From Nemertoderma westbladi (taxonomy: Eukaryota > Animalia > Xenacoelomorpha), in NCBI GenBank assembly GCA_032718475.1, contig JAUCBJ010005415.1:1-48043 (forward strand): a DNA stretch of 48,043 nt, written 5' to 3'. Positions 3,644 through 43,736 of the stretch are shown in pieces (position 1 is the first letter of the stretch; the number at the start of each line of letters is the position of its first letter). Under the pieces are notes generated by a model. It ran no database searches. It was not told where the DNA came from and saw only the letters and a program-made list of their open reading frames with translations. Position numbers and translations under genes: made by a program.

Positions 3644-3660
3644 AAAACGGGAAGACAACA

Positions 3661-6970: not shown

Positions 6971-6981
6971 GGGGCGAAAGA

Positions 6982-9525: not shown

Positions 9526-10316
9526 AGAAGTGAGAGGGGGGCACGTGGGTACAGCAGGACAGACTGTGTAGGCCGCACGGGACATACTACTGTACTGCAC
9601 AGCCCGTAGAGTAGGTCAGAATGTTTGATACAGGGCCAGGAGGTTACCTGGTGCAGACTAGCATAGTAAGGAATAGCTAGTCTATCCTGTATACAAACCA
9701 TAGGGGTTATTTAAAATAAATAGTCCATCATAAGTATTGATAGAACAGTAATAGAATTAAAAATCAGATTCGACAAATTATAGCAACAGTAGGCAAAATA
9801 TTCTAGAACATAATAAAAGTAACTGACAGATTTAGGGAATTTAGGGAAATTTTGTACTTTAAGGGGTAAATAGGCAAATTCAGCAATAAAACCTAGCGTT
9901 CTGAGGGAGATAGGCCATTATCGGACCACACAGACCATCCTAACTACATCACTCACCTATACTGAGCCTTGGTAAGGCACCACCTTGTAGGTGAGCGATT
10001 GGAAGCGTTCGAAATGGCGGAGAGACTTGTCAGAAAGAGAAAGGCGGAAATGGGTGGAAAGGAGATACTAGTAGATTTCACCGAGAGGCATCCGGAGGAG
10101 AAGACGAGGGGATACTACAAGGGGTTAGAGAAGGGTCACAAGGCGCGAGTGCTGCAGGACCATTTCAGGAAGGTGCATGATAGGCGGCTGGTCGAGACCT
10201 ACGGGACGCCATCGCTAGACAATGCGATCCTCGAGCATTTCCACTATGTGGTAAAGGGAGACGAGGCGAAGTTCGGGATACCGAAGTATCCGAGGGAACC
10301 ACCGAGAAAGGATTGG

Positions 10317-10695
10317 CACCGGTCTGCACTGAACTGATGACTGAGTAACTGAACCGGTAATGTTATACATTGACAATATATATGTAATCGTTTCTACACT
10401 ATTGTGGCCTTTGTCCAGTGGATGCTTTCCCCCGATCCTATTGGCTGATAACCTACTTCACGCCTCTCACCTCTTTGGGAGTGCTTCCCCCTCTGTTGGC
10501 CCCTGTTGGTTATTTTTCCCTCCCGAGGTGGTTTGACCTCTAACCTCCCTTTGTGTGGCTTTGGGGTTCGTGTTATCCACGTTATTGGTTGTGGTACAAG
10601 ATTGGTTGTTACCAATCTCGTACCTCTGACATATTACTGAAAAGATGCCACTTCCCATTTATGAGGGTAATGCAGCGGAACTGAATCCGCTTACA
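10317..10695 (-). repeat. Truncated family-X LTR, inverted
   Basis: The reverse complement starts TGTAAGCGGATTCAGTTCC and matches about the first 370 bp of the 1174 LTR (e.g. AAAGGGAGGTTAGAGGTCAAACCACCTCG). Confidence 0.85.
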
Positions 10696-17000: not shown

Positions 17001-17215
17001 TGAATGCCTTTGAGTGACATCAGAATATTACGAGAGAGATCCAGAGATTGCAGATAGGTAAAGTGCAGTAATCCACAATCTAATTCTCTTATCTTGTCAT
17101 GGAATGTTCCAGGGAGGACGAGTTGTTTGATATCTTCGAGAATAGAATCATGGCCAACATTGATTCTATCCATTATCCAACTCTCAGTCAAAACTATGCC
17201 CGCACTAGCAGCCAT
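14033..17215 (-). CDS. CEP72: Centrosomal protein CEP72 / LRRC36 family protein (N-terminal LRRs + LRRcap, central coiled coil), single coding exon
   Basis: 1060-aa ORF. LPGTFHDKI, SLDLSRN, LNLYYNKI, DLRLNPV..DYRLFLIHLL..LDDRSVRDSER closely match the CEP72 N-terminus. The coiled coil ends in MLEQSHSALIDTN. Confidence 0.88.
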   Translation of the reverse strand: MAASAGIVLTESWIMDRINVGHDSILEDIKQLVLPGTFHDKIRELDCGLLHFTYLQSLDLSRNILMSLKGIQSLLYLEDLNLYYNKINSMKELYRLRHNNKLRLLDLRLNPVTKSNRDYRLFLIHLLSNLEALDDRSVRDSERRSAIMHFSTSQAAEIQNCATYEFENSITNLEDVKETPEIKVSSRSNLVASLGRGVQMDDCAIIDDVVRCKGNPNKPRPVTGSAEYIPSQQKYSKHFIHKLETAEVVGRDKCMEDAAVVDDNGWSEAIKWSKEQGIIANTEGNDEGYPYIRAAIYFEKKQNQPLNVVTNSFDIGVRCLDNEKPESHAKVDVSQFAINATSGNKSDSKEANCSNHYAIPTTLQLCGTTEHKNISAPLDPQNCPTLKQYDAQNEEFIAGICDLVDRYWNGKHSLHRHEKFKSLAHELICVELPGHSPSSIPEEIHLDMDLNKLTKQLAELSHENFALKGELAECKSCLSAVTDDKTQLSTLETELKDLRYDCDITIKQNSELKSKLSSLTKLKEDTDASKIQNSSEIEKLKNTISNLEEECGSLRQQVKQFERVDILTEMLEQSHSALIDTNKRLVNEVNAHKDSYLASNRVLAPSFPQLAISGNVTDHSNMSNENSTNQLIYHDDFTTSWRNNSNDLHFQSLGNDYDIPAAPQREEVDFDWSQLRHAGFESISQNTLHAKQFSIQHPQNLKHNNIIEPQKHHPTMRNQEINDICKPNVLCSTIEKYNQPIQRFEEAVKRPHHIQESLREYRGHPKSEKYTGGPKLNDNSTDGDIFCYASSQSKERHEDSFSNKDRPDVNNYNIVDDSYYKENIERIKSSQSFKPLLTSKQPSNSYSQINKCKTGSPAEDRGQEKTTLKANFMENTGQILPYKEHVQSNADIRMLTQYVAKEHPIQTVVSDLIMTMDSFDDVVGNATISNKKEKERFNKSNNLVSSIPKSHNIDSLNILPDSHSEDNVAADIYKQNVVLVTDIDRHDPRFFKSRHRSVDFEFGKGEQVGPSRFGLNRGERMDPSRRRLNPHRNQDESDDHKQKNNNILEYKVASDDSYCF

Positions 17216-22560: not shown

Positions 22561-24308
22561 TCAGTCCTTCGAACGGTGTTTACAGAGTTTCTTAAGACTT
22601 GCGAGAGTCTTTTTCTCTTTAGGGCGAGCCACTTTACTAGGATGGCTATAACTCCTGGGGGAAGGGTGCAATACAATTGCATCGGAAGGGTTAGGATTGC
22701 GGTTAGTGTATCCACCAGTCGAGGTATCCGGTTGGTCGATATCGATATCGGGGGATCGTGATTGAACAACCTTTAGGGCTCGTTTCAGGATGGCAGCTCT
22801 TACTGGTCCTTGATTGGTTGTCTGTACGGCAGCGGTAGGTTGACTGTATATAGTGAGGAATTTTCTCGGTTTAATCGATTTTTCTAATTCGCATTCCCTT
22901 GCTTTGTATTCATATGGTCGTCTATGAACTTCTTGTAACTCAGGGTGTGCGTTTATGAATAATTCACCATATTCAGGATCTTGTCGAATAAATTTAATCA
23001 GATTATAAGAATCTAAACTACTGGGATTGATATTTCTCAGATATTTACGGACGTATTTGGTTGAAACACTCTCGCCAACGCGTTTCATCAGTTCATAACT
23101 AGGAGTGTGAGATTTTTGTTCAACTGAGGAAAAGAGGTATGGGTGAAACGCATAAACTCCTTCGTATGCACGTCCTGGATAATATCGGTGGCGTGATTCA
23201 CAATGGAGATCCGCACTAGCTTCCCAAGATGTGATATACCGTAATGCAACTATTTCATCCATTTAAAGGTCTCGGTTGAAAGGGCAATCAAAACTAGCAT
23301 GTCCTTTGAATTGGCAGTAGTGACACTGAGTCATGAATTGAGGACAAACAGCGAAAATATGCTGATTGTTAAGTCGACAATAAGCACAATAAAGTTCCAT
23401 AGAAGGTTGATCTTTAAAGTAGGAGCAGAGTTCGTTGGAGTCTAAAGGGGTAAATGGTCATGTGATGTACATAATCGACAACGTTTCCTAGAAATGTAAT
23501 TGGCATGCCGATAATCATATACCGTGAGACGTTGAGGCCCTTGATACCATTCCAACACATAATCATTATCACTACTCCTGGGTGTTATGGGTTGAATTTC
23601 TTCAGATTCTAAGCAAATTGGTTCTTCTTCAACTTGCAGAGATTCGACGGATGTAGCCATTTTCTCTAGGGAACCCACCATTTGAACTTCCATAATAGAG
23701 TATCCTGTGGGGATTCTGGGTCACTTTGCATAACAGATGAATGTAGATTTTGTATACAAACGTCCTTAAAAATGGCAAATCCAGCGCTATCTAACTTCTC
23801 AGCGGCGGAATCTCTCAAGCTGGGTTTGGTTAATGTGCGGTCTTTAAACTGACTATCAACGTTACAGAACAGAGTCAGAAAGCGTCTAAAGCATTCGAAT
23901 CGGATGAATTTATTGTGTTCATCTAGCTTAGCGAGTTTAGTCCCAAGCAGTAAGGGGTGAGCACGTATAGTTCCCCAACTTTGAAATTCCATCCGTATTC
24001 TTGGAAGGCCAGATGCCTGATGGAGGTCCTTTGTACTTTGTTAATTCCGCTCGGTGTATTGGTATACATGGTCTGGAAAAAACCTCGACCTTCTGCCCAC
24101 GGTGCAATTAATTGGGTGTCTACGAAAGGGTATCAGGATGTTTTCCATATTTCTAAAATCGTTCTAGAGATCTCCATAAATGGCTGAGCCAATTTTAACT
24201 ATTCTTTTGTCAAACAGCATTTCAAGGACTGGTTGGGGTAGCATAGATCCATCTATACCCATTGCCGGTTTGCGTTCGGTAATGGTTATTTAACATTGCG
24301 CGAGTTCG
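22561..24308 (-). pseudogene. Extra ORF of element A, 3' part: exonuclease ExoII region, Cys/His knuckles, basic tail
   Basis: Manual translation gives LPQPVLEMLFDKRIVKIGSAIYGD (24241-24170), FVDTQLIA, TSIRHLAFQEYGWNFK, and CRLC...H, CAYCRLNNQHIFAVCP, CHYCQFKGHASFDCP. Several stops and frameshifts. Confidence 0.7.
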
Positions 24309-24313
24309 AATTG

Positions 24314-24912
24314 TGTAAGCGGATTCAATTCCATGCATTACCCACCCAAAATGGGACTAGTGGCATTTTACCAATATGGGGGGGATGTGAGATTACCAAT
24401 AATAATCTCACCTTATAACCAACTGGGGGGGGGGGGGCGATACACGCCGTAAGCCACAGAGAGAGGTGAGAGGTCAAACCACCTCAGAGGGAGAAAGCAG
24501 CTAGTGCGGCTAGCAGCAGGGGGGAACACCAACAGGGAGTGGCGAAGTGACAATTAATAGTTAAGCCAATAGCGGGCACGTGAACACGTTGGGGAGGATT
24601 AGAGCGCATCCATTGGATACCAGAGGGCTTACAGTAGTATAGGGCTAAAACTAATATGTGTCAATTATATAATCATTGTAACTACTGATTATCAGTTAGT
24701 TGATTCCCTTACGATTGTGAGACCGGCATAGTTTTTGACCGCCGTTGTCATCGTTGTTACTGTTACTGGTTTACATCGTATATTATTATATTCAGATTCT
24801 GTGATTACCAACACTGACAGACAAACTATATTGTCTTTGCCGGCCTTTGGCCAAACATAACAATCTACACCGGTCGGGAGCTGATACTGTCAACTCCGTC
24901 AGTCCCGTCACA
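24314..24912 (+). mobile_element. Solo LTR of family X
   Basis: TGTAAGCGG...CCCGTCACA flanked by a 5-bp TSD AATTG (24309-24313 / 24913-24917). Confidence 0.9.
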
Positions 24913-25006
24913 AATTGTCCATGTCTAAGTCTCTTTTGCATATATGTAAGGGTTTCAAAAGAGTAGTCGATCGCGTCGGAACAGGCCCGAGTAAAAACAT
25001 GGGTAG

Positions 25007-26219
25007 TGTAAAAGCTTTTGCGGAATTGCCCGGTTATTTTTCCTTATTTTTCCCGTAAAATACTCTGTAGTTGGTTTAGTAGGCGTAAGAGGCCGTATTA
25101 TTGCTGTATCGGTGTTTTTTAGAGGACCTAAGAGCTATTTCTTCCGTATGTGTACTTTGGGGGACATGGTTGGTGATTCTATGGCAATTCTATGATGCAA
25201 AATAGCTAGATCCTCTTGAAACAGTAGTTACTATGACGACGGTTAACAGCTGAGCTGTATACGTGTCGATTTTCTTTGTTCTACGGTGCCTCTCAGTTCA
25301 GTCAACCAATCAGAGCGTTTTTACTGTTCTTGTACAGAAATTTCCTAGAAATCACGCAATGCTTTATGGGCAGTGTTATCATTCAGTCCTGAGCCAAGAA
25401 AGAACGGCTTTTGGAATATTTGTGCTTTTCTGCTTTTAGCCTAACACTAGTAGGCTTAATTATAAGGACATATATCCGTTATCTGGGTAACTCAATGGTT
25501 AACAACTTACTCAATGCTTGGCTGGTCTTGTCGTGCATACTTTTATAACGTTATACTGCTATTTACTGTCGGTTATTCATTATATGGTTGATGAAATATT
25601 ATATTTGGAATAACGAGAAATAACCCCGAAAACCCAATATTCTTGATATACCGAAGGTAAGAGAAACAGGTTACATATAACGATTGTGACTTATGTTAAA
25701 GTGGTTTGAAGTGAATCTAATGTTATCTGATAGACCCTACATGAGTCGGTCTGTGTTCCTTTTATATGTGACTAAAATCAGTGAAGATCGGCAGATCAGT
25801 GTGCAGTATTGTGCAGCATTGTGTATGAGTGAGACTGATAACGAAGCATTTCCTAAAGAATGCGCCATATATGTGAATTGTAACTAAGCCATATCGTTGC
25901 ATGTAGTTTAAGTCATAGCTCTGTTTATATAGATAGAGTGCCACGTCCAAAAGGAACTGTTAATATTCCCCGAAGGTGAATAATATTGTCAGAGATTATA
26001 TAATACTGTCAGTCGAATAATACATTAGGCTTACATAGCAATAAGATTAAGCCGTCGAAGTCAATCTCCCGGGTATATCCAGCGGGTGAATGATCGCGCA
26101 CAGATTGGTTTCAACTAGTGTAGTGAATCAAATACTTGTCAGAGGCTAAAAGCGATTTATTATCTAGAAGACATCCTAATTTGGCGGGTTAAACTGCCAA
26201 AGGTTTGAAAGCGCGAACA
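25007..26219 (+). repeat. Element B 5' LTR
   Basis: Direct repeat of 35439-36651; about 4 substitutions seen by eye. Confidence 0.95.
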
Positions 26220-28559
26220 ATAACGGATATAGCTTCTTTATTGCAGTAAGCAATAAAGTTGAAAGTACCGGTCAACCGGTAAACCTGAACCGGTACTGCG
26301 GTACGTCTGTAGGCCCAACTGCCTGAACCGGTACTGCTGTAGGCCCGTAGGCTCAACTGTCCTAACCGGTACTTCCAGTACAGGTATAGCAGTATTATTC
26401 GATTTTGATTATTATATACCAGTAGGCCTTAATAATTAATCAGGGAGGGCCCGCCCTGGTTTTTTATTGAGATTTTACTTATTTCTGTCAGTTTTATTTA
26501 TTTGTAGGCCAATATTGAACAGAAGGCGTGTAAGCCTGATCAGATTGTACAGACAATTTGTAGGCTTGACTGTTGGCTAACTGTTGATTAGGTCTGAACG
26601 GATTGCAGTGCATGTAGAGTGTATGTCCGATAAAGAACGGTTAGGAAGTAGGGGCAGCCATAGCTGTAAGGTAAACCCCCATCTAAAGAATAAGTCGTAC
26701 TACTGGGTTAGAACGCATACTACTTAACCATTTCGGAGTCTGCATGTCCTGTGGTTTATTTAGGCCAGCGTTTGGTCTGTACTTTGTTTGTGTAGTCTGT
26801 ACGGGTAGCGTATAATTTTATTTAGATAATTTGTAGGCTGGATAGTTGTCTGGCTGTTGTTGGGTTTGAGGAAATTTCGGTGTGTGTAGAGCATCTGTCC
26901 GATAAAGTGCTAAGTTAGGAAAGTAGGGGCTTCAAGTGCTGTGAGGTAAACCCCCTGTGAAAGAATAAGTCGTACTACTGGGTTAGAACGCATACTAACT
27001 AATCATTTTGGAGTCTGCATATACCGTAGTTTGTTTAGGCTTGATAGTAGTCTGTCAGTATTTGGTCTGCATTTTGTTTGAGTAGTTTGTACGCTGTTTG
27101 TTTGCTGTTTGTCAGTATTTGGTCTGCATTTTGTTTGAGTAGTTTGTACGCGTAGCGTAATATTTATTATTCAGAGTTATGCTATTATTCGCAACATTCA
27201 TATCCCCAAGTTTATTCCTACAGTAATTGTGTTTGTTATACATACCGTTATAGTTAAACTAACCCCGGTACTACATCAGGGCTGCTCGGCGTAGGTAAAG
27301 ACTGGTGATTTTGTGCACCAGTCACTCCAGCAGATGCCGTGGTTCTTTTAGCTGTTCAAGTATTTTTAACTACTAATTATTTGTTATACAAGTACTTGTA
27401 CCTAATTTAGGGTTTAGTGTACAGTGCTTTCCGAAAGCAATTAGTGTGTAGGCAGTGTATTTGTGTTGTAAAGTGGTTAATAGGCACGTTGGTTCTGGTA
27501 GACCGCGGTAATTAACTTCTAGGTAGGGACACTCCGTGATACATAATGTAGTACCTATAGCGATACGGTTATAGGTCGTCAGGCGGTGGTATTTTCCTAT
27601 CTGGACAACGCAGTATATTTACTACTACTTATTATTTTCAAATACCGTAGTAACCTGTCCGTTGTAATAACCAGATATACTAACCCTTTGTTAGGCTGGT
27701 TTGTAGATTTCTTGTAAAATTACCCTAAAAATTCGTATTTGTGTATTTGTAATTAAATTTTTGTGTTTATTTAGAGATTGTAATCTCAACCCGAATTGTA
27801 CGTAATTTGTAGTATTAAGTAACTTAGGTAAATTAGAATTATTTGTTTTAGTGTCTAACAAGTAGCACTCCACTGAGAGCGCACAGCTTATGTGTAGTGA
27901 CTCCCCCAGAAATAATAACATTTATTTCAAACATTGACAAAACCCATTAAACGGGTATATATATATTATAAATCAACTCAAACGATTTATAAATAGTAGG
28001 CCTGCCATATAACAATTAGGACTCAATATCAGTTGGACTACTGCTTAAATAACGGTAATAAAGTAAGTTAAAGTAACCAAGTAACCCTTAAAATTCAGAA
28101 ATTCAATTATTCTAAAATAATTGACATACCGGTATTTACAATAGGCTTATTATCTTTATTTTTATAAATATAAGCTGAAATTATACCGGTATTCTGTAAT
28201 TAATTCTAGTCTGTAATTATACTTATATATATACACTATAAGTGTAAACTGCATACCGGTATTCACGATAGGCCTATTATATATTTTTATATTTGTGCTG
28301 AAAGTACCTACCGGCATTCTGTGACAAATCTAGTCTGTAATAATACTTATATATACTATAAGCATACCGGTATTCTAATATATTATATATATCACGCTAC
28401 ACTGAGTAGCAGTATCGGTAATTAATTACTAGGCTAACAGTGATACTGAATTACTAGACTTACTTTAGCTGTATTTATAGCCGTAGGCATTCAACTGTGT
28501 AATCAAACATATCTGACACAAAACGGGCACTGTCAGATAGTCTTTTGAAAAGTGTTAGA

Positions 28560-31500
28560 ATGAGTCTTCGACTTGGACAGTGTCTTGAAAGGATAGAAGA
28601 AAGAAAAGCGGCAGAGGCAGTGGCAGAAGCAGACTTGAGGAGACAAATCGGAAGACGGTTATTTGCCTCCTCCGATGAAGGTGATATAAGAGATCCCGAA
28701 AGTAGAGGTAATAAATCTCGTTCAAGCAGGCGTAGAAGAATGCCACACTGTCCGAAGTTATCTAATTTGCCTCCTGCGGTGAGACTAGCTAGCACAGACT
28801 TAGGTAGTACAGAACCCACAGACCAAATTATTACAGTAGAAAGACTCCCTTCTATAGTAGATGAGCCTGAAATAATTAGGCCTGTTCTCAAAGCCACCCC
28901 TGCGGTGATAGAGACACCTGTACTCCCAGAACCTACCTCTAAATTCCCTTTGCACAGCACGAAACTACCTGTGCCCAGTAGGACTGTTCCCGAGTCCGAA
29001 CCCATCCTGGACGCCGAGCGAGATATTAAGAATTTATCGCCCGTCGTCTCTCGCTTGCCCGCTACTACGTTGGCGACTCCCGCTTCGGCGGTCGAGTGGG
29101 TAGCTGAGGGACGACGGGAGATGAGTCTCCTGCTCGGGCAGCTGAGGGAACATTGTAAATGTTCCTCCCAGCAGGTCCGGGAGTTGGAAGGGACTGTTCA
29201 GCAGTTAAAGGGAGCAGTAAGAGAGGGTAGGTTAGCGTTGCAAGAAGTGCAGCAAAGTATCGCGTTAGAACGCGATAAGTTAGTAAATACACAAAAGGGT
29301 ATACTACCACCCCCTGTAACAATGTGTCAACCTGTTAGGTCTGAAGTATCTCATGCGCAAGGTGTGGAGCCTACACGCATCTATACTGCTAGCGAAGTAG
29401 AAACTCCTATAGTGAACCCTATTAAGGGTAATTATAGACCTGTTGATAATGATATTCCCTATAGACCGGATCATAATCCGAGAAATTTATATACCGATAA
29501 CTCGATATTAAATAACACGATGGCCCAAGAAAGTTTTACGCGTCAAATGGCTAGAACCGAAGCCCGTCAAGCGGTAAAGGTGGGAGAGATCGTCAAGTTC
29601 AATGGAGATGAGATGAAATGGTTACCTTTTAATGAATATTACAAAGATAACATACAGAACTCTGTACTATCTAATGGAGAGAAACTTAGATTCCTCATCG
29701 AGTGCTTGGAAGGATCTCCCAAGTTAATGGCGTTAAAGTTTATTGGACATCCAGACGGATTAAGACAAGTTTGGGATACACTAAACATCAGGTATGGTAA
29801 TAGGAATAACATAGCTAGGTATTTGTATGCAAAATTAATGGCGCCCCGAAAGTTTCTTAGCAGCGGGATTATAGAGTTTTCCGATGAGATTCAGGAGATC
29901 TGTAGACAATTAGATTGGCTAGGTAAGTCTCATGAATACCAGAATTCTATGGTTGTAGGAGCCTTAGCATCTACTTTGCCCAAGGGTGGAGTAGGTACAC
30001 GCTGGGACAAGAAAGTGTTATATATGATGGAACAACAACGACGAGACCCTACCATGGCTGATCTCATGTCATTCTTAGATGGAGAAGTGAAATTACAGCT
30101 CCTAAGGCAGTCCAGAGAGAAGACACTGGAAAACAAGGTAAGTGAGAAACCCGTTTCTAGGAGAAGGGTAACACCAGTGTGTTATACAGACGACGGCGAA
30201 AGCCAGACTTCTCAAGGAGAGGATAGCGGGAAAGACACTGAAAGATCTTATTATGTCAATAAAGCGCCTATAGAACAGGTAAGTAAATTCAAGTCTCGAC
30301 CCAATGACAGAAGAGAACCGGTAAGAAAAACCCCTCCTACGTCTCCCAAGAGAATTCATGTAAGAAAGCCCGAGGAAAGAACAAGTGTGCACCACACAGC
30401 ACAGGTTAAAGTAAGTAACATCAAACCCAAATGTGTGCTGTGCGACGGGCCCCACCGCTTGAATATGTGCGATGAATTCTTAAAGAAATCATTAAAGGAG
30501 AGACGGGAAGTCATGTGGGATAAGCGGTTGTGTTATAATTGCCTCAGACGAGGACACCAACGGCGAACCTGTTACTCCGACGCAAGGTGTGCAAAGTGCG
30601 GTGCAAAACATCATATCTTGTTGCACACTGAATTCGAACGAAGCAGCCCGAGTCAGGTAAGTGAGTCCGAACAACTACATGTCCAATTCAGTGATGTGAA
30701 CGACACTGACCAAAGTTCTGAGATGGAAGGATTCTATACGGACGAATTCTCCGACGAAAACGAATCCTGTTACTTAATAAACACCACCGCAGTGTATCGA
30801 GCACTCATGTATGAGAAAGACACAGACAGCGACCTCACCCTAACTACTTCAGATCAACAACAATCTTGGAAAGCGCCAACTTCAAATGTAGGAATCCGAG
30901 AATTTCCTGTAGTCCAGTTACGGGTCCACGGACCTCAGAAGAGCTATATAGTGAACGCCCTCCTGGACTCCGGCAGCACAGGAACATTCATCGATAAAGA
31001 ACTAGCCGAAGACATCTTTGCTGGACAACCCAAGTTCCGAACCAAGCTAAACATGTCAGGGATCATGCAGGTTTGGAAATCTGCTGTGGCTGCCGACTAT
31101 TATATAGGTGAGTTGTCCACTCCACAGGATAAACTAGGAGAACACAGTATAAGGTCAGTCAAAATGGTGGCAATAAAGAACTTCGCTACCACCCAAGTGG
31201 AACCTTATAATTGGGACGAAGATGATCATGCCCAACAACTTAACATTCCTAGATTCGACACCGATTATCCTGGAGTACAAATATTAATCGGTCAAAACGC
31301 GCATGAGGCGCTGGAGACATTGGAGAAACGACCTGCTCAACCGCAACCACTTCAGACCTATGCGGTAAGAACTAGAGTAGGTTGGTACCTTACTGGACCT
31401 TCCCGAAGAACGCTCAGAGAAAGACTGCTTCAAGATCGCGTCTGCCAGGTGAGTGAATGGGAAGATGATACTAGTGAGGGAGACGACCCAACTGAGGGAA

Positions 31501-32177
31501 CACCATACTCCTCAGATAATGATGATATTAGCTCCAATGTAGATCAATGGAGATATTGCCCCAAGAAGTTTAATCCAACTGACATCGCTTCCAGAGGAGC
31601 AACTCCTCAAGAACTGACAGATACTACAGACCGGTTAGGTGAACCCGACTTCCTGAGTAAGGAGGATGAATGGCCTCCCCATCTTACTCCGACTGAGATT
31701 AGACCAGCCAAGGGAGCGGAGAAAGTCAAACCTAAAACCCGGACGGGTGGATCGGAGTTATTTGAACCCGGGATAGATCTGTCGGTATTACATATTGCCA
31801 GGGACGACGCCGTGGATCTGGACCTCCCCACCGCGAGTGGATCCTTCATGAAGATCAGAGAGAGCGATTGGAGCTCTGGAACATCAGACGTCTCGCAGGG
31901 ACTCTCACCTCTCCTGCAGGGAGCGACGGACCACTATAGCTCCTGGAATCGGCTTTGTAAGGCCGTCGTGTACCTAGAGCGATGTTTCTATCGTCACTAT
32001 TCCAGGACGAAGAGGAAACCTGGAATTGTATTCGGGATGCAGCGACTCAATCACCCAGTCGGTCGTTTGTGTTTACCGGAAGGGAATGGAGGACTCTCCG
32101 GAAACTGTGGAAGGCAAGATTCTCTTCCCACGACCACCTCCCTAATCCTTCAAACATCTAGGGACTCCATAACGTAA
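28560..32177 (+). CDS. BEL/Pao Gag-protease fused in frame to short RNase H-end and integrase-end remnants
   Basis: First ATG at 28560. FNGDEMKWLPF / EKLRFLIECLEG (DUF1759-like), three Cys-His knuckles (CVLCDGPH..C, CYNCLRRGH...C, CAKCGAKHHILLH), ALLDSGS protease, then QWRYCPKKFNPTDIASRG and YSSWNRL. No YxDD RT motif or DDE core recognised. Confidence 0.88.
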   Translation: MSLRLGQCLERIEERKAAEAVAEADLRRQIGRRLFASSDEGDIRDPESRGNKSRSSRRRRMPHCPKLSNLPPAVRLASTDLGSTEPTDQIITVERLPSIVDEPEIIRPVLKATPAVIETPVLPEPTSKFPLHSTKLPVPSRTVPESEPILDAERDIKNLSPVVSRLPATTLATPASAVEWVAEGRREMSLLLGQLREHCKCSSQQVRELEGTVQQLKGAVREGRLALQEVQQSIALERDKLVNTQKGILPPPVTMCQPVRSEVSHAQGVEPTRIYTASEVETPIVNPIKGNYRPVDNDIPYRPDHNPRNLYTDNSILNNTMAQESFTRQMARTEARQAVKVGEIVKFNGDEMKWLPFNEYYKDNIQNSVLSNGEKLRFLIECLEGSPKLMALKFIGHPDGLRQVWDTLNIRYGNRNNIARYLYAKLMAPRKFLSSGIIEFSDEIQEICRQLDWLGKSHEYQNSMVVGALASTLPKGGVGTRWDKKVLYMMEQQRRDPTMADLMSFLDGEVKLQLLRQSREKTLENKVSEKPVSRRRVTPVCYTDDGESQTSQGEDSGKDTERSYYVNKAPIEQVSKFKSRPNDRREPVRKTPPTSPKRIHVRKPEERTSVHHTAQVKVSNIKPKCVLCDGPHRLNMCDEFLKKSLKERREVMWDKRLCYNCLRRGHQRRTCYSDARCAKCGAKHHILLHTEFERSSPSQVSESEQLHVQFSDVNDTDQSSEMEGFYTDEFSDENESCYLINTTAVYRALMYEKDTDSDLTLTTSDQQQSWKAPTSNVGIREFPVVQLRVHGPQKSYIVNALLDSGSTGTFIDKELAEDIFAGQPKFRTKLNMSGIMQVWKSAVAADYYIGELSTPQDKLGEHSIRSVKMVAIKNFATTQVEPYNWDEDDHAQQLNIPRFDTDYPGVQILIGQNAHEALETLEKRPAQPQPLQTYAVRTRVGWYLTGPSRRTLRERLLQDRVCQVSEWEDDTSEGDDPTEGTPYSSDNDDISSNVDQWRYCPKKFNPTDIASRGATPQELTDTTDRLGEPDFLSKEDEWPPHLTPTEIRPAKGAEKVKPKTRTGGSELFEPGIDLSVLHIARDDAVDLDLPTASGSFMKIRESDWSSGTSDVSQGLSPLLQGATDHYSSWNRLCKAVVYLERCFYRHYSRTKRKPGIVFGMQRLNHPVGRLCLPEGNGGLSGNCGRQDSLPTTTSLILQTSRDSIT

Positions 32178-33842
32178 CAACATATGGAGTGGGTGTGTGA
32201 CTCTATTATTTTGTATTTGTTTTATTTTTATATTTATGTATGTATTATTATGTAATTTTATTTTAATCGTTTTATTTAATTTTATTTAGTAGTATGGTAT
32301 TTTAGAGATTATTTAGTAGATTAGTGCAATATATATTCGCGTTTATTATTTAATTACGTATATTATATATTTAGTGCGACGGCGAGAAATAATTCTTTTT
32401 CTCTTTCCTTACTGCCCGTATCATATTATAAATACGTGACTACAGTAAGATGAAATATCCGTACTTATTAAAGTACAATAAAGCCACTACTATATTTAAG
32501 TATTATTGGTAGGCAGAGTATTAGGAATGCAAAGTTCAGATCCTCGTGTCTCTGCTAAACCAAGCTCTGGGTAGACCTTGGAAACGACTTGCCTCTTCAC
32601 ACTGACATTGCTTCGTGCGATATTGCTCTCATACCGTATATTAAATAATACATATAGTAGCGTGATGTCCCTCTAACAGTAGCGTGAAACGCAAATAAAT
32701 CTGTTAAACCTTTTGACCATCTGTAATTCTAGTCGATTAAGATATCGCGGCACCCACCGATATACTTGAAAGACAAATTCTAGAATCAGTGGTTAACGTC
32801 CCCAGACAAGTTCTGGAATAAATCGGTGCCCATCTCAAATATTAATTATTTAATATTTGCAAATCTAATAAATCAAAATCTGTAAAATTCAGATCCTTCA
32901 ACAATTCTAGTCAATTAAGACATCGTAGCATTTACCGATATTCTTAAAAAGACAATTTTCATAGAATTAAGGATCTTGTGTCCCCAGACATGTTCTAGAA
33001 TCAAAACATGTCAATTTAATTATCAAATAATAAAATTTCAGGGAATAAATTTAAATTCATGCCTTTTAATGAATTTAATAAATTGCCATTTTTACGCAAT
33101 TTATAACATTCCCAAAATTCCATTAATTAATAGATCAAGGGAGCGGAGATTTATCTTCTTATGCGTATGAGTGTGCGAAAGTCTCCCAAACATAGTCAAT
33201 AGCCGATAAAATTCATAAAGCCATGTATAAAACAGGACATTGACCATTAAAGAATTACTATTAAATAACATCCCAGATCTGTATGCATTGGAATTACCCT
33301 AATTCTACCGCTAGCTTTGCATAATGTCACCATAGCAACAACCACGCTAGAATTAGAATTGAGTTAAAAGAACAATAGAAAGCTTGTCCCATTGAATAGC
33401 ATAGGGAATAAATAGCGCACCGCTAGTATCCAAGAATACATAATAACAACGTGACATTCTGGAAGGCACTTGACTAACGGACAAATGACCCGAATGTGTG
33501 ATAGAATGTGTACCATTTGTGACTGTTACGTGGAATTTGTGCGTTTGTAGGTGAATGTTACTACTAAGGTGTGTTTACAGTAGCGAGTCGCAATTGTGAA
33601 AGTAACCCTAACTCTCCAGTAAGAACCTGAAGTATATCTAAGCCTTTGGGACGGACGGTGGAGTGGCTCGTGCTGGTTGTTGTAGTCGTTGTGCAGCTAC
33701 GACGTTGGCGATAGGCACATCGGCGAAAGTACACCAGCGCTGAGGATCTCGCACTGTCCGGGGGCTGATTGGGGTAGGCAGCGACGCTCGCTAGCCTAAA
33801 TATAAACTCATTATAATATTAATAAACTCATATATAGCAGAT

Positions 33843-35360
33843 ATGACGGAGTTGATAGAAGATGGTCTTGGTATCAGGGAGCGATATACTCTACTTTCAA
33901 GCGTTTGTTGATAGCTTGATACGCGGTGATACTAGTCCAACTACTACGGAGGATGATGGTCGTTATATCGAACCTACGATTTCCTGGAAGTAACTTACGC
34001 GTGAATTGGACTATGGAAAATTCACCGCTCGCTATACGCATCGTAATGGTACGTATATGGACTTCTTGACTACTGGTCATCCTATTGATTTACACGACAC
34101 CGACGATATAGACACCGAAAGGGAAATGGTTTTATTTAAATATCATACCCAGCGGAGTCGAAACGATAAATCGAGAATAGAACACGAGAACTCTATTCGA
34201 AACAGACTCGAGAGGGAAGACGTTGAAGAACCTGATAAACGTCGCGACTTCAACGATTATCTAGAATTCCTAAGAGAGACCTATCTCAATATTGCCAGTC
34301 AACAAAACCTCGAAACTCGATATCCTCAAGGTATACATCCAGACCCTATGATGGAGCTCAAACGGCTCTATTTTACGATGATGTATCTTACCGCCGATCG
34401 ACCGCTACCTGTCATTCCAGATAGCTTCGAACAGATGGAGGAATATTGTAAAACTGGAGAGCGATCACCCGCGTTTCCCCTTCAAGACGTGCGTCTTTGG
34501 TATTATTACGATAAATGCCCTAGACCCAGCCAATAAACGGAAAGACATAAACATCCACGGAAACGTTGTGTTAAACACAGTTGTGCTCGTTATATTTACT
34601 GGAGTTTCGAGCGAAACTTGTTTGACGTATCACCTATGCTCACTCGGCTCGAACGATCCTGGAGTAAACCTACGATCAGAGTCCCGGAATACTCGGTCAA
34701 ACCTCCTCATTCCTTAGTTGGACCTCAGACCTGCGATCCTGGTGGTGTCGCGGATCCTCGCGGACTGTATTCACTGTTCAAAGATCTAGTGCTACCCTAA
34801 CAATTAATCGGTAACACTCCGACAGTGATTTCTAGCTAGCCGCCCATCTTACCTAGCCGGATTGTGACGCGGACACCTAATATCACTATCCAACCGTATG
34901 GTCGTCCCCGTTTAACGCGATACAACCCTTCATCAAGGTGAAGGAGAGCGTTGTACGAAACGAGTTAAACGCTATTCTATAAAGATCAAAAAAGAAACCT
35001 GCGTTTGTTCAGATAAACGTAAGTTATAACAGTAAGTCCAATCGATAAACGAATTGGCCTTATCTCAGTTCGATTGGGAAATCTCGAATCTCTAAGAAGA
35101 TATCAAGCTTAGAAAACCCTATTCTCTGCGAGAGTTTTGGACGAACGTATCCCATGACAAGCGGAGGAAAATCAGCTCGAGGAGAAGCATATCGAAATGG
35201 ACGAGACACCGACCGTAAACCCAAACCTTCTAATGCAATTGTATTGCACCCTTTACCCAGGAGTTATAGCCTTTCTAGTAAAGTGGCTCGCCCCAAAGAG
35301 AAAAGGACTCTTGCTGGCCTCGGGAAACTGCGTGAACGCCGTCCGCGCAAGAAAAACTAA
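33843..35360 (+). pseudogene. Extra ORF of element B, internally deleted and disrupted
   Basis: Homologous to element A 38880-37510 (MTELIED..., RYTHRNGTYMDFLTTGHPIDLHDTDD), joined near 35200 to the C-terminal tail (AIVLHP.PRSYS..SKVARPKEK) that matches A 22561-22710. Confidence 0.8.
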
Positions 35361-35438
35361 CTGTTTAGAGTATCTTTATGTTTTAGAAACTGTGATTTTT
35401 ATATTTTATAGACTGAAAATCCCATTTTCTGGGAGCGG

Positions 35439-36651
35439 TGTAAAAGCTTTTGCGGAATTGCCCGGTTATTTTTCCTTATTTTTCCCGTAAAATACTCTGT
35501 AGTTGGTTTAGTAGGCGTAAGAGGCCGTATTATTGCTGTATCGGTGTTTTTTAGAGGACCTAAGAGCTATTTCTTCCGTATGTGTACTTTGGGGGACATG
35601 GTTGGTGATTCTATGGCAATTCTATGACGCAAAATAGCTAGATCCTCTTGAAACAGTAGTTACTATGACGACGGTTAACAGCTGAGCTGTATACGTGTCG
35701 ATTTTCTTTGTTCTACGGTGCCTCTCAGTTCAGTCAACCAATCAGAGTGTTTTTACTGTTCTTGTACAGAAATTTCCTAGAAATCACGCAATGCTTTATG
35801 GGCAGTGTTATCATTCAGTCCTGAGCCAAGAAAGAACGGCTTTTGGAATATTTGTGCTTTTCTGCTTTTAGCCTAACACTAGTAGGCTTAATTATAAGGA
35901 CATATATCCGTTATCTGGGTAACTCAATGGTTAACAACTTACTCAATGCTTGGCTGGTCTTGTCGTGCATACTTTTATAACGTTATACTGCTATTTACTG
36001 TCGGTTATTCATTATATGGTTGATGAAATATTATATTTGGAATAACGAGAAATAACCCCGAAAACCCAATATTCTTGATATACCGAAGGTAAGAGAAACA
36101 GGTTACATATAACGATTGTGACTTATGTTAAAGTGGTTTGAAGTGAATCTAATGTTATCTGATAGACCCTACATGAGTCGGTCTGTGTTCCTTTTATATG
36201 TGACTAAAATCAGTGAAGATCGGCAGATCAGTGTGCAGTATTGTGCAGCATTGTGTATGAGTGAGACTGATAACGAAGCATTTCCTAAAGAATGCGCCAT
36301 ATATGTGAATTGTAACTAAGCCATATCGTTGCATGTAGTTTAAGTCATAGCTCTGTTTATATAGATAGAGCGCCACGTCCAAAAGGAACTGTTAATATTC
36401 CCCGAAGGTGAATAATATTGTCAGAGATTATATAATACTGTCAGTCGAATAATACATTAGGCTTACATAGCAATAAGATTAAGCCGTCGAAGTCAATCTC
36501 CCGGGTATATCCAGCGGGTGAATGATCGCGCACAGATTGGTTTCAACTAGTGTAGTGAATCAAATACTTGTCAGAGGCTAAAAGCGATTTATTATCTAGA
36601 AGACATCCTAATTTGGCGGGTTAAACTGCCAAAGGTCTGAAAGCGCGAACA
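35439..36651 (+). repeat. Element B 3' LTR
   Basis: Direct repeat of 25007-26219, followed by the TSD GGTAG. Confidence 0.95.
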
Positions 36652-38880
36652 GGTAGAACCAGCTAATCCTCGTATATGTATCATTCGCGTAGTTCCTAGT
36701 ACTCCAACAGGAACACTACCTTCGTTATCATAGGTAACAACTCCGTACATTTCGATAACATTACGAGTTTCGTTCCACTCCTCTGTGGCTTTTTCTATAG
36801 TCATGCCCACAGGATGCCATAATGTCGCTCGGTCACTGGCGTTAGGCACATCGCGATATTTTAAATAATGCGTAGTATGTGTAACTTCATCTCCATATCT
36901 CTGTATTCTTTCTTCTTCAAACAATACATCTAGATTCCATTGGACTAATCGAATTTTAATAAATCCATCGAGATTATATGGAGGTATCACGTCATTTTCT
37001 ATTCTCGAGACATTATAAGGTTTTCTAAATGAGTTTGCTTTAACTAATTGGTCCAAATGTTTCTGCAGTTGTTCAAGTTCAACAAGGTCTAGGGGATTTA
37101 TCAATGGTAGAAACTTTAAACTATGTGTAGGAACTTCAGGGTCTACCATATAATATTGAGCTAAGTGGACATAGTAGGGGTGGTCTTTGATCCTGTAAAA
37201 TGAGTTCTGTAAAGGTCTAGCGCGTATGTTAACCTCGTGTACCATACGACGGACAAGATCTGCTCGATTGTCAGGAGGTTCAACGAGTATACTGTCGACA
37301 CGAGCAGCTTCGAACGGCGGATGTTGTAACATAGGAGTGTCAGCTATAAGATCTCGAGATCTTAAGTTGATATCAACCGGTTGAGATTGTGCTGTCGCGA
37401 AGAGTTTATCTCCGAAATGAGGAACCATCGAAGGATGAATGATCGTTTTGGAGTAGAGATCAGTCATAAGTATCTGAGCTTCGGGTTGGGCTAAAGCTGC
37501 TTCTTCTCTCTCGTCCTTTTCGATATGTTTCTCCTCTAGCTGATTCTTCTCTGCTTGTCTTTGAAAACGTTCGTCTAATAACTCTTGTAACGAATATGTA
37601 CGTCCAAGTTCAATATCTCCCTCCAGATTCTCGATTTCACTATCAAACTGAGGTAAAGCTAATTCTTTTACCACTTGGACATGTTGATGTAATCTATGTT
37701 TGTCTTAACAATCACAGGTTCCCTTTCCAATATTTTGCAAAATTGCGTCCCATGCGTTCCGTATGACACTTTCCTCCACCTCGGTGACAGGTTGTATCGG
37801 AGTCAAACCGGGACGATTATACGGGTTGAACGGAGATATTAGATGTCCGCGTCCTAATCCGGCTAAGTAGGATGGGCAAATATCCAAGGAGCCCACAACC
37901 AGAGTGCCACTGACTAATTGTTCGGGTAACACCAGATCTTTGAACAACGAGTACAACTCAGGAGGATCTGTCATACTGTTAGTGTTTAGAGTCTGCGGTC
38001 GCCCCAGGGAATGAGGAGGTCTGACCTAGTATTCCGGAACTCTGATCATAGGTTTACTTAAGGATCGTTTGAGTCATGCGAGCGTAGGTGGCACGTCGAA
38101 CAGGTTTCACTCAAAACTCCCATAAGTATAGCGAGTAAAACTATGTTTAGCGCAACGTCTCTGCGGGTGTTTATGGCGTTCTATTTGTTGATTGGGTCTA
38201 GGGCATTCATCGCAGTAATACCAAAGACGCACGTCTTGTAAGGGAAACGCTGGCGACCTTTCTCCCATTTTACAATATTCCTCCATCTGTTCGAAGCTAT
38301 CAGGTACAACAGGTAGTGGTCGATTGGCAGTAAGATACATCATAGTAAAATACAATCGTTTAAGTTCCATCATAGGATTAGGATGTATACCTTGCGGATA
38401 TCGAGTTTCTAGATTTTGTTGACTAGCTACATTGAGATAAGTTTCTCTCAGGAACTCTAAATATTCGTCAAAGTCAGTACGCTTGTCCGGTTCTTCAACA
38501 TCTTCTCTTTCGAGTCGGTTTTGATTAGAATTTTCATGTTCGATTCTCAGTTTGTCGTTCCGACTCCGCTGGGTGTGATATTTAAATAAAATCATCTCCC
38601 TTTCGGTATCCACATCGTCCGTATCGTGTAAATCGATAGGATGACCAGTAGTCAAGAAGTCCATATACGTACCATTACGATGCGTATAGCGTGTGGTGAA
38701 TTTTCTATAGTCTAATTCACGTTTGAGCAGTTCCTCGGACATTGGCGGTTCGATATAACGTCCATCATCTTCCGTCGTATGTTGACTTGCATCGCCACTT
38801 ATCAAACTATCAACAAATGCTTGTAGAGGTAGAGTATATCGCTCCCTGATACCAAGATCATCTTCTATCAACTCAGTCAT
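36652..38880 (-). pseudogene. Extra ORF of element A, 5' part, ending in the exonuclease ExoI motif region
   Basis: Track ORFs 38107-38952, 37705-37974 and 36592-37674 share one frame, separated only by stops. ATG at 38880 is conserved in B. YGVVTYDNEG has D at 36727-36729 and E at 36721-36723. Confidence 0.8.
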
Positions 38881-40107
38881 AATATATATATATATGAGTT
38901 TATCGATATTATAAATAAAGGCTAGCGGGCGTCGCTGCCTATTCTCCCCCACTGCCCCCGGACAGCCCTGAGATCCTCAGCGCTGATATACTACTGTCGC
39001 TGTGCCCTCGCCAATGTAGTAGCCACACAACGACAACAATTAACCAGCGCGACTCACTCTACTGTCCGTCCCAAGGGCTCGAATATACTGGAGGTACTTA
39101 TTGCAGATGTAGGATATCTTTCACAATTGCGGCTCGCTACTGTAAACACACTTTAGTAGTAACATTCACCTATAAATACACAAATTCCACATTCCTGCCA
39201 CAATATGTACAAATTAGGGCCATTTGTCCGTTAGTCAAATGCCTTCCAGAATGCCACGTTGTTATTATGTATCCTTGGATACTATCTAGGTGCTATGTAT
39301 TACGCATTCTATTCAATGGGGCAAGCTTTCTATTGTTCTTTTCACTTACTTCTAATTCTAGTGTGGTTGTTACTATGGTGACATTATGCAAAGCTAGCGG
39401 TAGAATTAGAGTGTTTCTCATGCATGCAGATCTTTGATGCTATTTAATAGCGACTCTTGGGTTATTAATATTCCCTTTATATATGATATTTATTAATTTT
39501 GTCGGCTATTGGCTGCGCATTGGGAGATTCTCTCACACTGCTATACTCAATAGGGTGAATCTCCGCTCCCATGATCTATTAATTGACGAAATTTTGGGAA
39601 TATTAATAAATCGTATAAAATGACAATTTATTTAATTCATGAGAGGATATGAATTTAAAATTTATTCCCGTGAATTTTATTATTTAATTTTTGAATAGAC
39701 ACATTTTTATTCCAGAACATGTCTGGGGACGCCAACCATTGATTCTAGAAATTGTGTCTTTTAAGTACATCGGTGGGCGCTGCGATATCTTAATCGACTA
39801 AATTTTTAGAGGATCTAAGGGTTTAACATAATTTTATTTTAACATTTTATTATAACAAATGTTTTTAATATTTAACAAATAGTTAATATTAGGATGGGCA
39901 CCGATTTATTCCAGAACATGTCTGGGGACATTAACCACTGATTCTAGAATTTTTGTCTTTCAAGTATATCGGTGGGTGCTGTGATATCTTAATCGACTAG
40001 AATTTCAGATGGTCATAAAGGGTTTAAAGGATTTATTGGTCAAAGAATTTAACAAATTTACTTTGACAGCGCTACTGTTAAATGGACATCTTTCTACTAT
40101 ATGTATT

Positions 40108-40386
40108 AAAGTAAAGTAAAGTAAATTTTCTTCGGCCGCTAGGCCAGGGATTACGCACAAAGTCTGACGACTTATTTCCAGTGTGGTCCCCCCAGAACTT
40201 CACTCCCCAGAGGAAACTCCAGTACTCATTTAGCTACCACTTAAGGATGCAAGGCAGAGATGAGACCTGGCTGGTCCCTTTAAAGCATTGGTGCCGAAAC
40301 TAAAACTGCCCTGGCCCATGTGAGCATCGAACCGACGATCTACGGGAGATGTGAATTCAATGCAACCACTACACCAAGATGGAACC
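40108..40386 (-). mobile_element. tRNA-derived SINE
   Basis: Minus strand has A box TGGTGTAGTGG, B box GGTTCGATGCT, a CATCCTT..GGTAGCTAAATGAGTAC core and a (TTTAC)n tail. TATTA duplication at both ends; absent at the homologous site of element B (~32645). Confidence 0.85.
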
Positions 40387-40849
40387 TATTATTTAGCAAT
40401 ACGGTACGAGAGCAATATTGCAAGAAGCAATGTCAGTGAGAAGAGGCAAGTCGTTTCCAAGGTCTACCCAGAGCTTGGTTTAGCTGAGACATGAGGATCT
40501 GAACTTTGCATTCCTAATACTCTACTCTACCAATAATACCTAAGTATAGTAGGAGCGGTATAGATTGTACTTTAAGAAGTACCGACATTTCATCTTACTG
40601 TAGTCACGTATTTATAATAGAATACGGACAGTAAGGAAAGAGAAATTGAAATTATTTCTCGTTAACTATTATACTAAGTAATAAAATACCAAATATATTA
40701 CACTAATCTACTGAATAATCACCAAAAATCATTCTACCAAATAAAATTAAATAAAACGATCATAATAATATAAATTACATAATATTGCGTACATAAATAT
40801 AAAATAAAACAAATAAAATAATATGGTCACACACCCACTCCAATCGATG

Positions 40850-41733
40850 TTACATTATGGAGTCCCTAGATGTTTATTGGATTAGGGAGGTGGTCGTAGG
40901 AAGAGTCCCTTGTTTACCGTAGTTGCCAGACAACTCTCAGTCTCATTCCAATAAACATAAACGACCAACTAGGCGATTAAGTTGCTGAGTTTAAAAACAA
41001 TTCCTGGTTTTTTGTAGTTACGTCGCATGACTACGAGTTCCACTGATCTTACTAAACCATCATCGGATATGTGGGTCTCGATGATACTACCTGTCTGCCA
41101 CCTCTTACGGGGAAGATCTGATTCCACTATGAGGATCATGTCTCCGGCGCTGACATTTTCTTGCTGCACAAACCACTTTGTTCGAAGCTGCAGCGTAGGA
41201 AGGTAATATTTTTCGAAATGGTCAGCGAAACGACGGGATAATAATAACTGCATAAGTTACCAAGTTTGTCGGCAGTATTCGTCTCCGTCCGTTATTTCCA
41301 ACCGAGGGAGCATGGCTACAGGTTTCTTTAGTAGGAAATGCCTAGGTGTTAACGCTGCTAGGGAGTCTGGACTCGATGAGACTGGCATAAGCGGTTTCTC
41401 GTTGAGATAGGTGGCTATTTCCTCCAATAACGTCCTCAAAAGTTCGTCGGTGAGATACACGCGGCACGGCACTACAAAGTGAAATTTAGTCTTCACGCTA
41501 CGTATGAGTCTCTCCCAACTTCCTCCCAACCAAGGGGCGCCAGCGGCGTTGAAGGTCCAGCTAGATGCTGTTACTCTCAGCTGATCGTCCACCTGTCTTT
41601 GGTTCCAATCGTTTACGTAAGCTTTAATCTCGTTGTTGGCTCCAATGAAATTAGTACCTTTGTCAGATCTCATAGTGTTGCTAGTCCCAAAACGAGCGAT
41701 TTGTCGGCGTAAACTCAGTATGAAGCTGTTGGT
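40850..41733 (-). pseudogene. BEL/Pao integrase remnant of element A
   Basis: RSDKGTNFIGA, PWLGGSWERLIRSVK, LTPRHFL, YLPTLQLRTKW, SDDGLVRSV; in-frame stop and terminal frameshift. Confidence 0.88.
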
Positions 41734-41994: not shown

Positions 41995-43736
41995 GGCTCA
42001 TTCCAAAGTAAAGTACGGGACATTCGTACACAATTTTGAACTTTGATTGCCTGTACAATGTTATCCACAGCACATATGTGCACAAAATTGTGCTTGGATT
42101 GTACTTTCGAATATCAGCTTTGATTTCGCGAAGCTTATGGCGGGACTTAGTCACTTTTGAGAAAACACCAGCTTGTCCAATTAAGGTAAAGTACGGATTC
42201 GTACGAAATGGTTTTTTTTATTTTATGATTTCAATTCTAACATTTAGCGAATTGTGCGCAGGTACAGTGTTGAGTTGATATTTAGGATAAAGCTGTATTA
42301 TTAAGCTTAAATAAAAATATAAATATAAGACGAATTGCTACATTGCTAATTTTTTACAGTGTGGTTTGTGTGGTAAAGTATGGGACATTGCTAAGTAAAG
42401 TACGGGACCTGTACGAATTTTATGGTTAAAATGGTCTCTTCCACTTAACCTAACAGTAATTTCTGGATAATTAGTGATAATAAAGTGCAACTAAGTATTT
42501 CCAACCAAGATATGGATGGAAAATGTGGGGCGACCCACAAATTGACCCGAAGTCTTAGCATATGGATGCCGTTGAGGAGTTGTCTGTCATCTGTCTAATT
42601 TTTGATCGCTAATATTGTATAACTCTTGTCATTTATAGATGAAATTAAACCAAACTTGGTACGTATGAAGTCTGTCAAAAGTTTGGAAATAATCTGAAGT
42701 TTAAGGAATGAAAGGTCATATCAGACATTCTGTCTGTTGGTACCGATAGTTTCAAAATTTTGATAAAAACCGAAATAAGTCCGCCAATCATTGATGAAAT
42801 ACTGTATAACCAAACTTGGCCACAGTGCACTAATGTAATCGCCATTATAATGGTAAAGTATGGGACAATTTTCAATTGGCCGTCATGATGTTTCTGAGGG
42901 AGTAGATTATGAAACTACAGGTAATTGTTTCTTAAGATGACGCAACACAAATGTGCTTTGCATTCCACTGGGTGATTGGGCTGAGTTAGACTACTTCTCT
43001 GTGTATAAATTAAAAATTTCACTAATTTTTTGGTAAAGTATGGGACTTTACATGCATAAACCCAAAGATTTCTTGACTGAGGAATGATTCTCAGTTCAAA
43101 TATAGACTCCTATTCTTACGACCGACTATGAAGTATTATATCACTCATGGCTTCACATATTACATTAGTGCACTAATATAATCGCCATTTAATGGTAAAG
43201 TATGGGACAATTTTCAATTGGCCGCCATGATATTTCTGAGGGAGTGAAGATGAAACTAATTGTTTTATACGATGACGCAACACAAACGTGCTTTGCATTC
43301 CACTGGGTGATTAGGCTGAGTTACATCTCTGTGAATAAACTAAAATTTCACTATTTTAGGTAAAGTATGGGACATCACATGATTAACTTTATCGATTTCA
43401 TTACAGAGGAATGAAACACTGGTGAAATTAAATGAAACCAAGAAAATTCGAAAATGGGTTTGTTTTTGATTTGGTACATGCTCATAAATGTTAATTTATT
43501 GGTCATAGGAAGTGCCTACAGGAAACGAAACTTTTGCACACTTTTATTCACATTTTGTGCAGAGCAGGTGCATAATTTGTAATTCGACTATTTTTGATAA
43601 ACCACCTGTGTTGATACAATTTTTAGCACTGAATTCAGGAAGTACGATAAATTTAGACCTAAAATAAGTATAAATTCAAAGCTACATCTCATTTTTCGAA
43701 ATTAGTGGGGAGGTTGACCTTTTCATGGAATGAGCC
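41995..43736. mobile_element. Non-autonomous TIR DNA transposon (1742 bp)
   Basis: TIR GGCTCATTCCA / TGGAATGAGCC flanked by AAAA on both sides, 8 direct copies of GTAAAGTAYGG(GAC), and an internal duplication with ~340-bp period. Confidence 0.75.

Follow-up and report, generated by a model that had tools for sequence, protein, structure and literature searches.

What kind of gene lies in front of the 3' long terminal repeat (LTR) of a BEL/Pao retrotransposon in Nemertoderma westbladi? The element in question, here called element A, is found in contig JAUCBJ010005415.1 (assembly GCA_032718475.1), of which the whole stretch of 48,043 nucleotides (nt) was analysed and is referred to below as the window. 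An earlier note on this DNA had described an extra open reading frame (ORF) in the env position, encoding a WRN-like 3'-5' exonuclease of the DEDDy type together with zinc knuckles. Judged from its sequence, element A is the decayed copy of a BEL/Pao retrotransposon. The third ORF is a real gene of its lineage, is not an envelope gene and is under purifying selection. In our preferred reading, to which we give a probability of roughly 45%, the third protein would bind RNA 3' ends through a WRN/MUT-7-shaped domain and its knuckles, and would serve in trans as an accessory factor against small-RNA silencing.

Comparison of the window with itself shows a nest of three elements: element A, element B and a solo LTR. 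The coding region of element A is split by both of the others, which inserted later (element B, 11.6 kb; solo LTR, 599 bp). Once they are removed, three pieces of 2229, 89 and 1748 nt join into a third ORF of 4066 nt, about 1,350 codons, on the minus strand between the end of the integrase and the 3' LTR:

36652..38880, minus strand: third ORF, piece 1 (743 codons), an orphan N-terminal region followed by the ExoI-like motif
24913..25001, minus strand: third ORF, piece 2, the 89 nt between both insertions, from junction analysis
22561..24308, minus strand: third ORF, piece 3, with the ExoII-like and ExoIII-like blocks, the zinc knuckles and a 233-codon C-terminal region
25007..36651, plus strand: element B, a young, nested, non-autonomous relative with target site duplication (TSD) GGTAG, from self-comparison and its LTRs
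24314..24912, plus strand: solo LTR of another family, 599 bp, TG...CA, TSD AATTG, from self-comparison and an empty site in contigs

The TSD copies stand at 25002-25006 and 36652-36656 (GGTAG, flanking element B) and at 24309-24313 and 24913-24917 (AATTG, flanking the solo LTR); these duplications, the junctions and the motifs named in the earlier note were all found in their places. The runs X1, X2 and X3, which come from two samples and two studies, have contigs that cross the solo-LTR site uninterrupted, with 35 letters at a place where the window also has 35. In addition, X1 and X2 have a diverged contig of 1354 nt, taken to be one and the same since its length and depth are equal in the two; it matches 24136-24276 and 36652-36984, arranged as in the window. 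The proposal that the frame is kept across both junctions held in part: the phase carries through, but two frames are open in the 89-nt piece. Stops are therefore no test of the frame of this middle piece, and the chain test described below left it undecided.

Piece 1 is a single frame from a methionine at 38880, interrupted by four stops (38109, 38076, 38028 and 37707). Piece 3 has four frameshifts (near 24135, 23975, 23720 and 23450) and three stops on the reading path (24292, 24166 and 23265). With these seven stops and four frameshifts, and with the 5' half of the element missing, the copy of the third ORF in element A is dead. At the 24166 stop about 99% of contig depth has another letter, and contigs show an insertion or deletion at the frameshift near 24135; both lesions are therefore private to the window copy.

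That the dead ORF descends from a working gene is seen by comparison with element B, which carries its own copy of the ORF:

33843..35360, plus strand: third-ORF copy of element B, dead, with 8 stops and 6 frameshifts, from comparison with element A
28503..32177, plus strand: open Gag-protease ORF of element B, 1224 codons, fused to pol remnants, DUF1759 at E 3e-12

The layout of pol, spacer, ORF and LTR is common to the two copies, which are 79% alike; the spacer and ORF start share 79% identity, and the ends of pol are 81% alike. The earlier note had proposed measuring the ratio of nonsynonymous to synonymous divergence (dN/dS) between copies. In the ORF frame it is 0.123 over the first part (confidence interval 0.08-0.19, 291 codons, dS 0.69, dN 0.085), 0.257 over the next 147 codons and 0.37 for a 48-codon tail. 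For the first part, the shifted frames give 1.28 and 1.53, and the antisense frame that shares third positions with the ORF gives 0.24; all three frames of the upstream spacer (40030-39000) give 0.68-0.87. None of the four stops of the A copy and none of the eight of the B copy is shared. We regard the third ORF as real because the nested relative has the same gene start, a dN/dS of 0.12 and no stop in common. Majority differences of the contigs within the exonuclease-like domain fall 11, 4 and 17 times on codon positions 1, 2 and 3 (P 0.016 for third positions), these 32 places being drawn from the 40 listed of 108, with 7 that fall in the solo LTR and 1 beyond the domain left aside. A further ten at 36701-37143 (2, 3 and 5 at the three positions) are uninformative.

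The ORF is not env, because it has no hydrophobic anchor: no transmembrane segment was found in the eight translated third-ORF pieces, where the highest 19-residue hydropathy is 1.38, and an env identity was rejected on this ground. The layout and the hydropathy thus bear out the description of an extra ORF in env position with no env features. Instead of an anchor, its C-terminal part has knuckles, two of them clear CCHC-type knuckles as previously noted:

23284..23480, minus strand: three Cys/His knuckles, two clear and one degenerate

The degenerate knuckle is at 23480-23454, followed by C-x2-C-x5-H-x4-C at 23388-23344 and the canonical C-x2-C-x4-H-x4-C at 23325-23284. A zinc finger is conceivable in another Cys/His-rich stretch, at 38214-38154 on the minus strand in the N-terminal part of the A copy, but element B has a tyrosine in place of the first cysteine.

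The N-terminal part of about 700 residues was said to be unrecognised, and it stays so, as do the last 233 residues of the ORF; no search turned up a homologue. For the 743-residue piece there is no match at E 0.001 among 1.84 billion representatives, and the alignment of the N-terminal region has none in PDB. Matches to third-ORF pieces were likewise absent from 4285 candidate longer proteins and from two sets of 12 and 4 candidate viral contigs; the one metagenome match among 178 (L001) lies on a prokaryotic contig and was put down to chance. In the ESM Atlas, 38880-38110 reaches 0.85 at best (unnamed or mixed clusters) and 37704-36652 reaches 0.79 (ADP-ribosyltransferase clusters), both below the 0.9 level taken as a lead and both with low recognition. 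AlphaFold models of two third-ORF pieces outside the exonuclease-like domain have a predicted local distance difference test score (pLDDT) of 35.9 and 34.8.

The exonuclease-like domain runs from piece 1 into piece 3, broken into five parts, and its blocks are as follows:

36718..36747, minus strand: ExoI-like motif, D-x-E after a hydrophobic strand, 4.8 bits in the chain test
24170..24241, minus strand: ExoII-like block, K-x-G then Asp, the best-scoring at 13.9 bits
24103..24126, minus strand: strand after ExoII, F-V-D-T-Q (F-V-E-L-T in WRN), 13.3 bits
23798..23812, minus strand: ExoIII equivalent, D-x-x-x-E in place of Y-x-x-x-D, from the chain alignment

By eye, 9 of the 24 residues of the ExoII-like block are identical to human WRN. 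The domain was tested as a read-through with an X at each break, by a chain test of seven ordered blocks that were fixed on a reference protein, with insertions allowed between them. This reference (L015, Bacteroidota) has E values of 1.7e-13 to WRN and 4.7e-22 to PF01612, and the profiles were built from it and its relatives, RNase D and Pol I domains; they are prokaryotic only, and the 120 relatives listed look bacterial (41-63% identical to the query). The chain score is 34.2, while 600 shuffles reached at most 21.0 and 280 chunks of unrelated proteins at most 22.8. When 243 frame paths were allowed it rises to 40.6, a score reached by none of 671 dinucleotide-resampled controls and by none of 90 other stretches of the window (maximum 28.5). 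The WRN-like order of motifs that the earlier note had seen is thus beyond chance in this test, even with a free choice of frame; the test was designed after the motifs had been seen, and ExoII and the strand that follows it contribute the larger part of the score.

Several results weigh against an exonuclease-like domain. The ExoI block adds just 4.8 bits and the ExoIII block takes away 4.1, there are about 50 extra residues between the ExoI strands and ExoII, and the best control in the 243-path test scored 39.5. Six true family members, all of them in the training set, score 104-159 in the chain test. The earlier note had suggested looking for the exonuclease domain with Pfam, and no match over the cut-off was found on any third-ORF piece or on a 121-residue read-through, in scans that took the pieces one at a time. 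PDB gave no exonuclease match on any piece, and its weak matches to a glutamine synthetase (E 0.027), an acetyltransferase (E 0.8) and a Legionella protein (E 1.4) were judged to be chance. With hmmsearch a first profile, covering 70 of 80 loci, scored 3.1 bits (shuffles up to 3.3), and three broader profiles scored 9.3, 5.9 and 5.5 bits, compared with 7.6, 8.0 and 4.4 for the best of 2000 shuffles; the ExoII stretch alone was aligned. A six-frame search of the window with exonuclease profiles gave nothing significant (best E 0.25). Finally, the 1354-nt contig has 126 letters between the ExoI and ExoII pieces where 121 were expected, so it confirms that the two are adjacent and not that their frames are linked.

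On balance we think it likely that the domain has a DEDD fold. It should not be classed as DEDDy, as had been proposed, since the predicted ligands are D-E-D-E and the ExoIII tyrosine is missing from this copy: the D-x-E of ExoI and the Asp of ExoII are present, and ExoIII aligns as D-x-x-x-E. The ExoIII block is placed approximately at 23857-23771, with D 23812 at the position of the tyrosine and E 23800 at that of the aspartate, and codon positions 1 and 2 of these two residues show no majority contig difference among the 40 listed of 108. ExoIII had been presumed lost in the frameshifted zone; it aligns at 23812-23798 and is not lost. Whether the predicted domain would cut or would only bind seems to us an evenly balanced question.

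Element B is informative about how the third gene might act. Its two LTRs (25007-26219 and 35439-36651) are 99.7% identical, with 4 differences in 1213 positions, and an internal deletion near 35205 has removed the exonuclease-like and knuckle regions, so that the alignment to element A jumps to the last 50 codons. In the 1224-codon ORF, DUF1759 is accompanied by three Gag knuckles and a protease motif, and the Pfam scan found no reverse transcriptase (RT) family; the deletion in pol, with its loose ends at 31522, has taken RT together with most of RNase H and of integrase, and the Gag-protease frame stays open through it. Element B has thus transposed recently although its third ORF was dead and lacked the nuclease part and its pol was deleted. 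It follows that the element can do without the third gene in cis, and B would have been mobilised in trans. Proofreading by the nuclease, a role raised in the earlier note, becomes less likely in cis for the same reason; a supply in trans would still allow it. Summed contig depth over X1-X3 is 0.14-1.7 million on most parts of element B versus 14,000-52,000 on the exonuclease-like part, figures that are not copy numbers and that suggest that B-type sequence is very abundant.

In BEL/Pao elements the primer site is complementary to the 3' end of tRNA-Arg or tRNA-Gly (tRNA, transfer RNA). No primer site of the TGG type for a tRNA follows the 5' LTR of element B, and the site of element A is missing. 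The 12 nt that do follow it (26220-26231) are exactly complementary to 25471-25482 inside the LTR, a length reached by 3 of 5000 resampled LTRs in what was a post hoc test, and the motif is absent from the LTR of element A. This complementarity recalls self-priming of the Tf1 type (PMC4600332).

The BEL/Pao identity proposed for element A holds on several features. Both elements have LTRs of the expected kind (0.2-1.2 kb, TG...CA, short TSD), with 1213 bp and a 5-bp TSD in B and a 3' LTR of 1038 bp in A. A Pao-type Gag followed by a protease was found in element B, the one copy examined for it, and it has DUF1759 and three Cys/His knuckles, which we take to be a mark of BEL/Pao Gag. Homologues of the B ORF (E 0.001, n=30) are mostly Pao-type polyproteins, with PF05380 in 26 and PF03564 in 25, and the integrase remnant of element A carries the C-terminal DUF5641 (E 1.2e-16) as Pao polyproteins do. 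The placement rests on Gag and the end of the integrase because RT is absent from both copies.

There are parallels among known systems. DEDDy third ORFs (ORF3s) have been described in the LTR retrotransposons Juno and Vesta of bdelloid rotifers and in Athena/Terminon retroelements, with no activity test (PMC5408684; the case is repeated in PMC6431247 and PMC5718144). Juno and Vesta share with element A a non-env third ORF downstream of pol, a DnaQ-like exonuclease domain with altered catalytic letters (DEED in rotifers) and the lack of a transmembrane segment. Compared by description, the present ORF differs in belonging to BEL/Pao, in its length of about 1,350 codons and in having an orphan region of 700 residues, a knuckle array and an ExoIII of the form D-x-x-x-E. 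The earlier note had also mentioned nematode precedents; none was found, and the word 'nematode' does not occur in the part of PMC5408684 available. In the Dada DNA transposons of Laccaria and Ectocarpus (PMC3706591) the DEDDy domain lies inside a DDE transposase and keeps all four DEDD residues, whereas here it would lie in a separate ORF of a retroelement. Two inactive derivatives of DEDD nucleases, Maelstrom and EXD1, still bind RNA in the biogenesis of PIWI-interacting RNA (piRNA) (PMC5408684). Compared with WRN, EXD2 and MUT-7 (PF01612; PDB 2e6l, 2fbt, 6k17 and 7jw2), the order and spacing of the ExoI, ExoII, strand and ExoIII-like blocks are alike and the ExoII block resembles that of WRN, but the domain is below detection by Pfam and phmmer, lacks Y-x-x-x-D and has long insertions.

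For the Belpaoviridae, gag, pol and env are the only genes given (PMC8742986). Element A and element B agree with this group in the three-knuckle Gag, in DUF5641, in the size (1.0-1.2 kb) and TG...CA ends of their LTRs and in having a third gene in front of the 3' LTR (PMC8742986, PMC13524379, PMC3118150); unlike the env-like third genes of BEL/Pao, the one described here is not a glycoprotein and has no hydrophobic anchor, and no TGG-type site was seen after the 5' LTR of element B. The word 'exonuclease' does not occur in the available text of PMC3118150, PMC12440569, PMC7998251 or PMC13524379. An exonuclease ORF in BEL/Pao was not found in the full-text literature, a search in which the name with its slash is unsearchable and which has subscription journals, Repbase notes and supplements outside its scope; so far, exonuclease-like cargo is in print only for other transposon groups.

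In the reading that we prefer, the third ORF would be expressed from a separate message, either spliced or internally started, and its protein may be an accessory factor that acts in trans. RNA ends would be bound by the knuckles together with a DEDD-shaped pocket whose ExoIII site is altered, and the RNA of the element could thereby be shielded from small-RNA silencing by the host, through trimming or through binding in the manner of EXD1 and Maelstrom.

A different account, which we consider rather unlikely, is that the protein is an active 3'-5' exonuclease in the particle, one that trims the primer, complementary DNA (cDNA) or RNA-DNA ends, or proofreads, with the knuckles packaging the enzyme with RNA and element B borrowing it in trans. 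Each of the four metal-ligand positions does have an acidic residue (D, E, D, E), 3'-end processing has been proposed for the rotifer ORF3s (PMC5408684) and for Dada (PMC3706591), and element B needs pol in trans anyway. Yet the window copy lacks the ExoIII tyrosine, descriptions of other BEL/Pao elements list gag, pol and at most env (PMC8742986), and the N-terminal region of 700 residues would be left unexplained.

Slightly less likely again is that the resemblance of this real accessory gene to an exonuclease is a coincidence, the product being an orphan zinc-knuckle RNA-binding protein of some other fold. Every library search was blank, and the signal comes mostly from two adjacent blocks with an empirical P of about 1 in 670 in a post hoc test; however, five blocks follow one another as expected at the places where they had been picked out by eye, and in four of five pieces the path that scores best among the 243 is the one through the long open frame. 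We hold it improbable that the protein is a full BEL/Pao silencing antagonist, in which the new 700-residue region, a rewired MUT-7/EXD1-like pocket (D-E-D-E) and the knuckles would capture or trim piRNA or small interfering RNA (siRNA) intermediates and, in trans, let a Gag-only and possibly self-priming derivative flood the genome. A passively carried host gene, whose apparent selection would date from its past in the host, is largely refuted: both window copies are dead, but they have diverged (dS 0.69, dN 0.085) at the same position in the element, and no cellular homologue of the 743-residue piece was found among the 1.84 billion representatives.

The remaining parts of element A lie on either side of the third ORF, whose stop is 79 bp upstream of the 3' LTR:

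40860..41685, minus strand: C-terminal integrase remnant of pol, DUF5641 at E 1.2e-16, from translations
38881..40859, minus strand: non-coding spacer of about 2 kb between pol and the third ORF, common to element B at 79-81% identity
21445..22482, minus strand: 3' LTR, 1038 bp, with a short purine-rich tract just before it

Element A is 5'-truncated, the end of the integrase being all that remains of pol in the window; upstream of about 41700 the window holds no gag, RT, 5' LTR or further pol frame for it. Non-coding repeats of about 335 bp occur at 42824-43428, upstream of the truncation point. LTR-like inverted copies at 1174-1541 and 10317-10695 are 68-84% identical over parts to the solo LTR at 24314-24912. 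Elsewhere in the window there is a Gypsy-type element with short LTRs (2566-6977) and a pol of 1164 codons (RVT_1, RT_RNaseH, rve), and a second, distant BEL/Pao-like family has left remnants of RT and integrase at 6970-8971, followed by tandem repeats of 37-49 bp at 9137-9528. Two long, host-like single-frame ORFs lie on the minus strand: 14033-17215 (1060 codons, with an N-terminal LRR_9 at E 2.8e-9 and coiled coils) and 44918-47194 (758 codons, with a 24-bp tandem repeat), which would resemble the centrosomal proteins CEP72/LRRC36 and kizuna.

Third genes of BEL/Pao elements have been described as env-like, and enzymatic ORF3s are a theme of rotifer Gypsy-like and Penelope-like elements. 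A selected, nuclease-shaped, RNA-binding cargo in this family would extend that theme to another LTR superfamily and, if true, retroelements would seem to recruit DEDD domains repeatedly. Since this abundant family comprises both members that have the domain and members that lack it, a role of the nuclease in end processing or in countering silencing could be tested within one genome.

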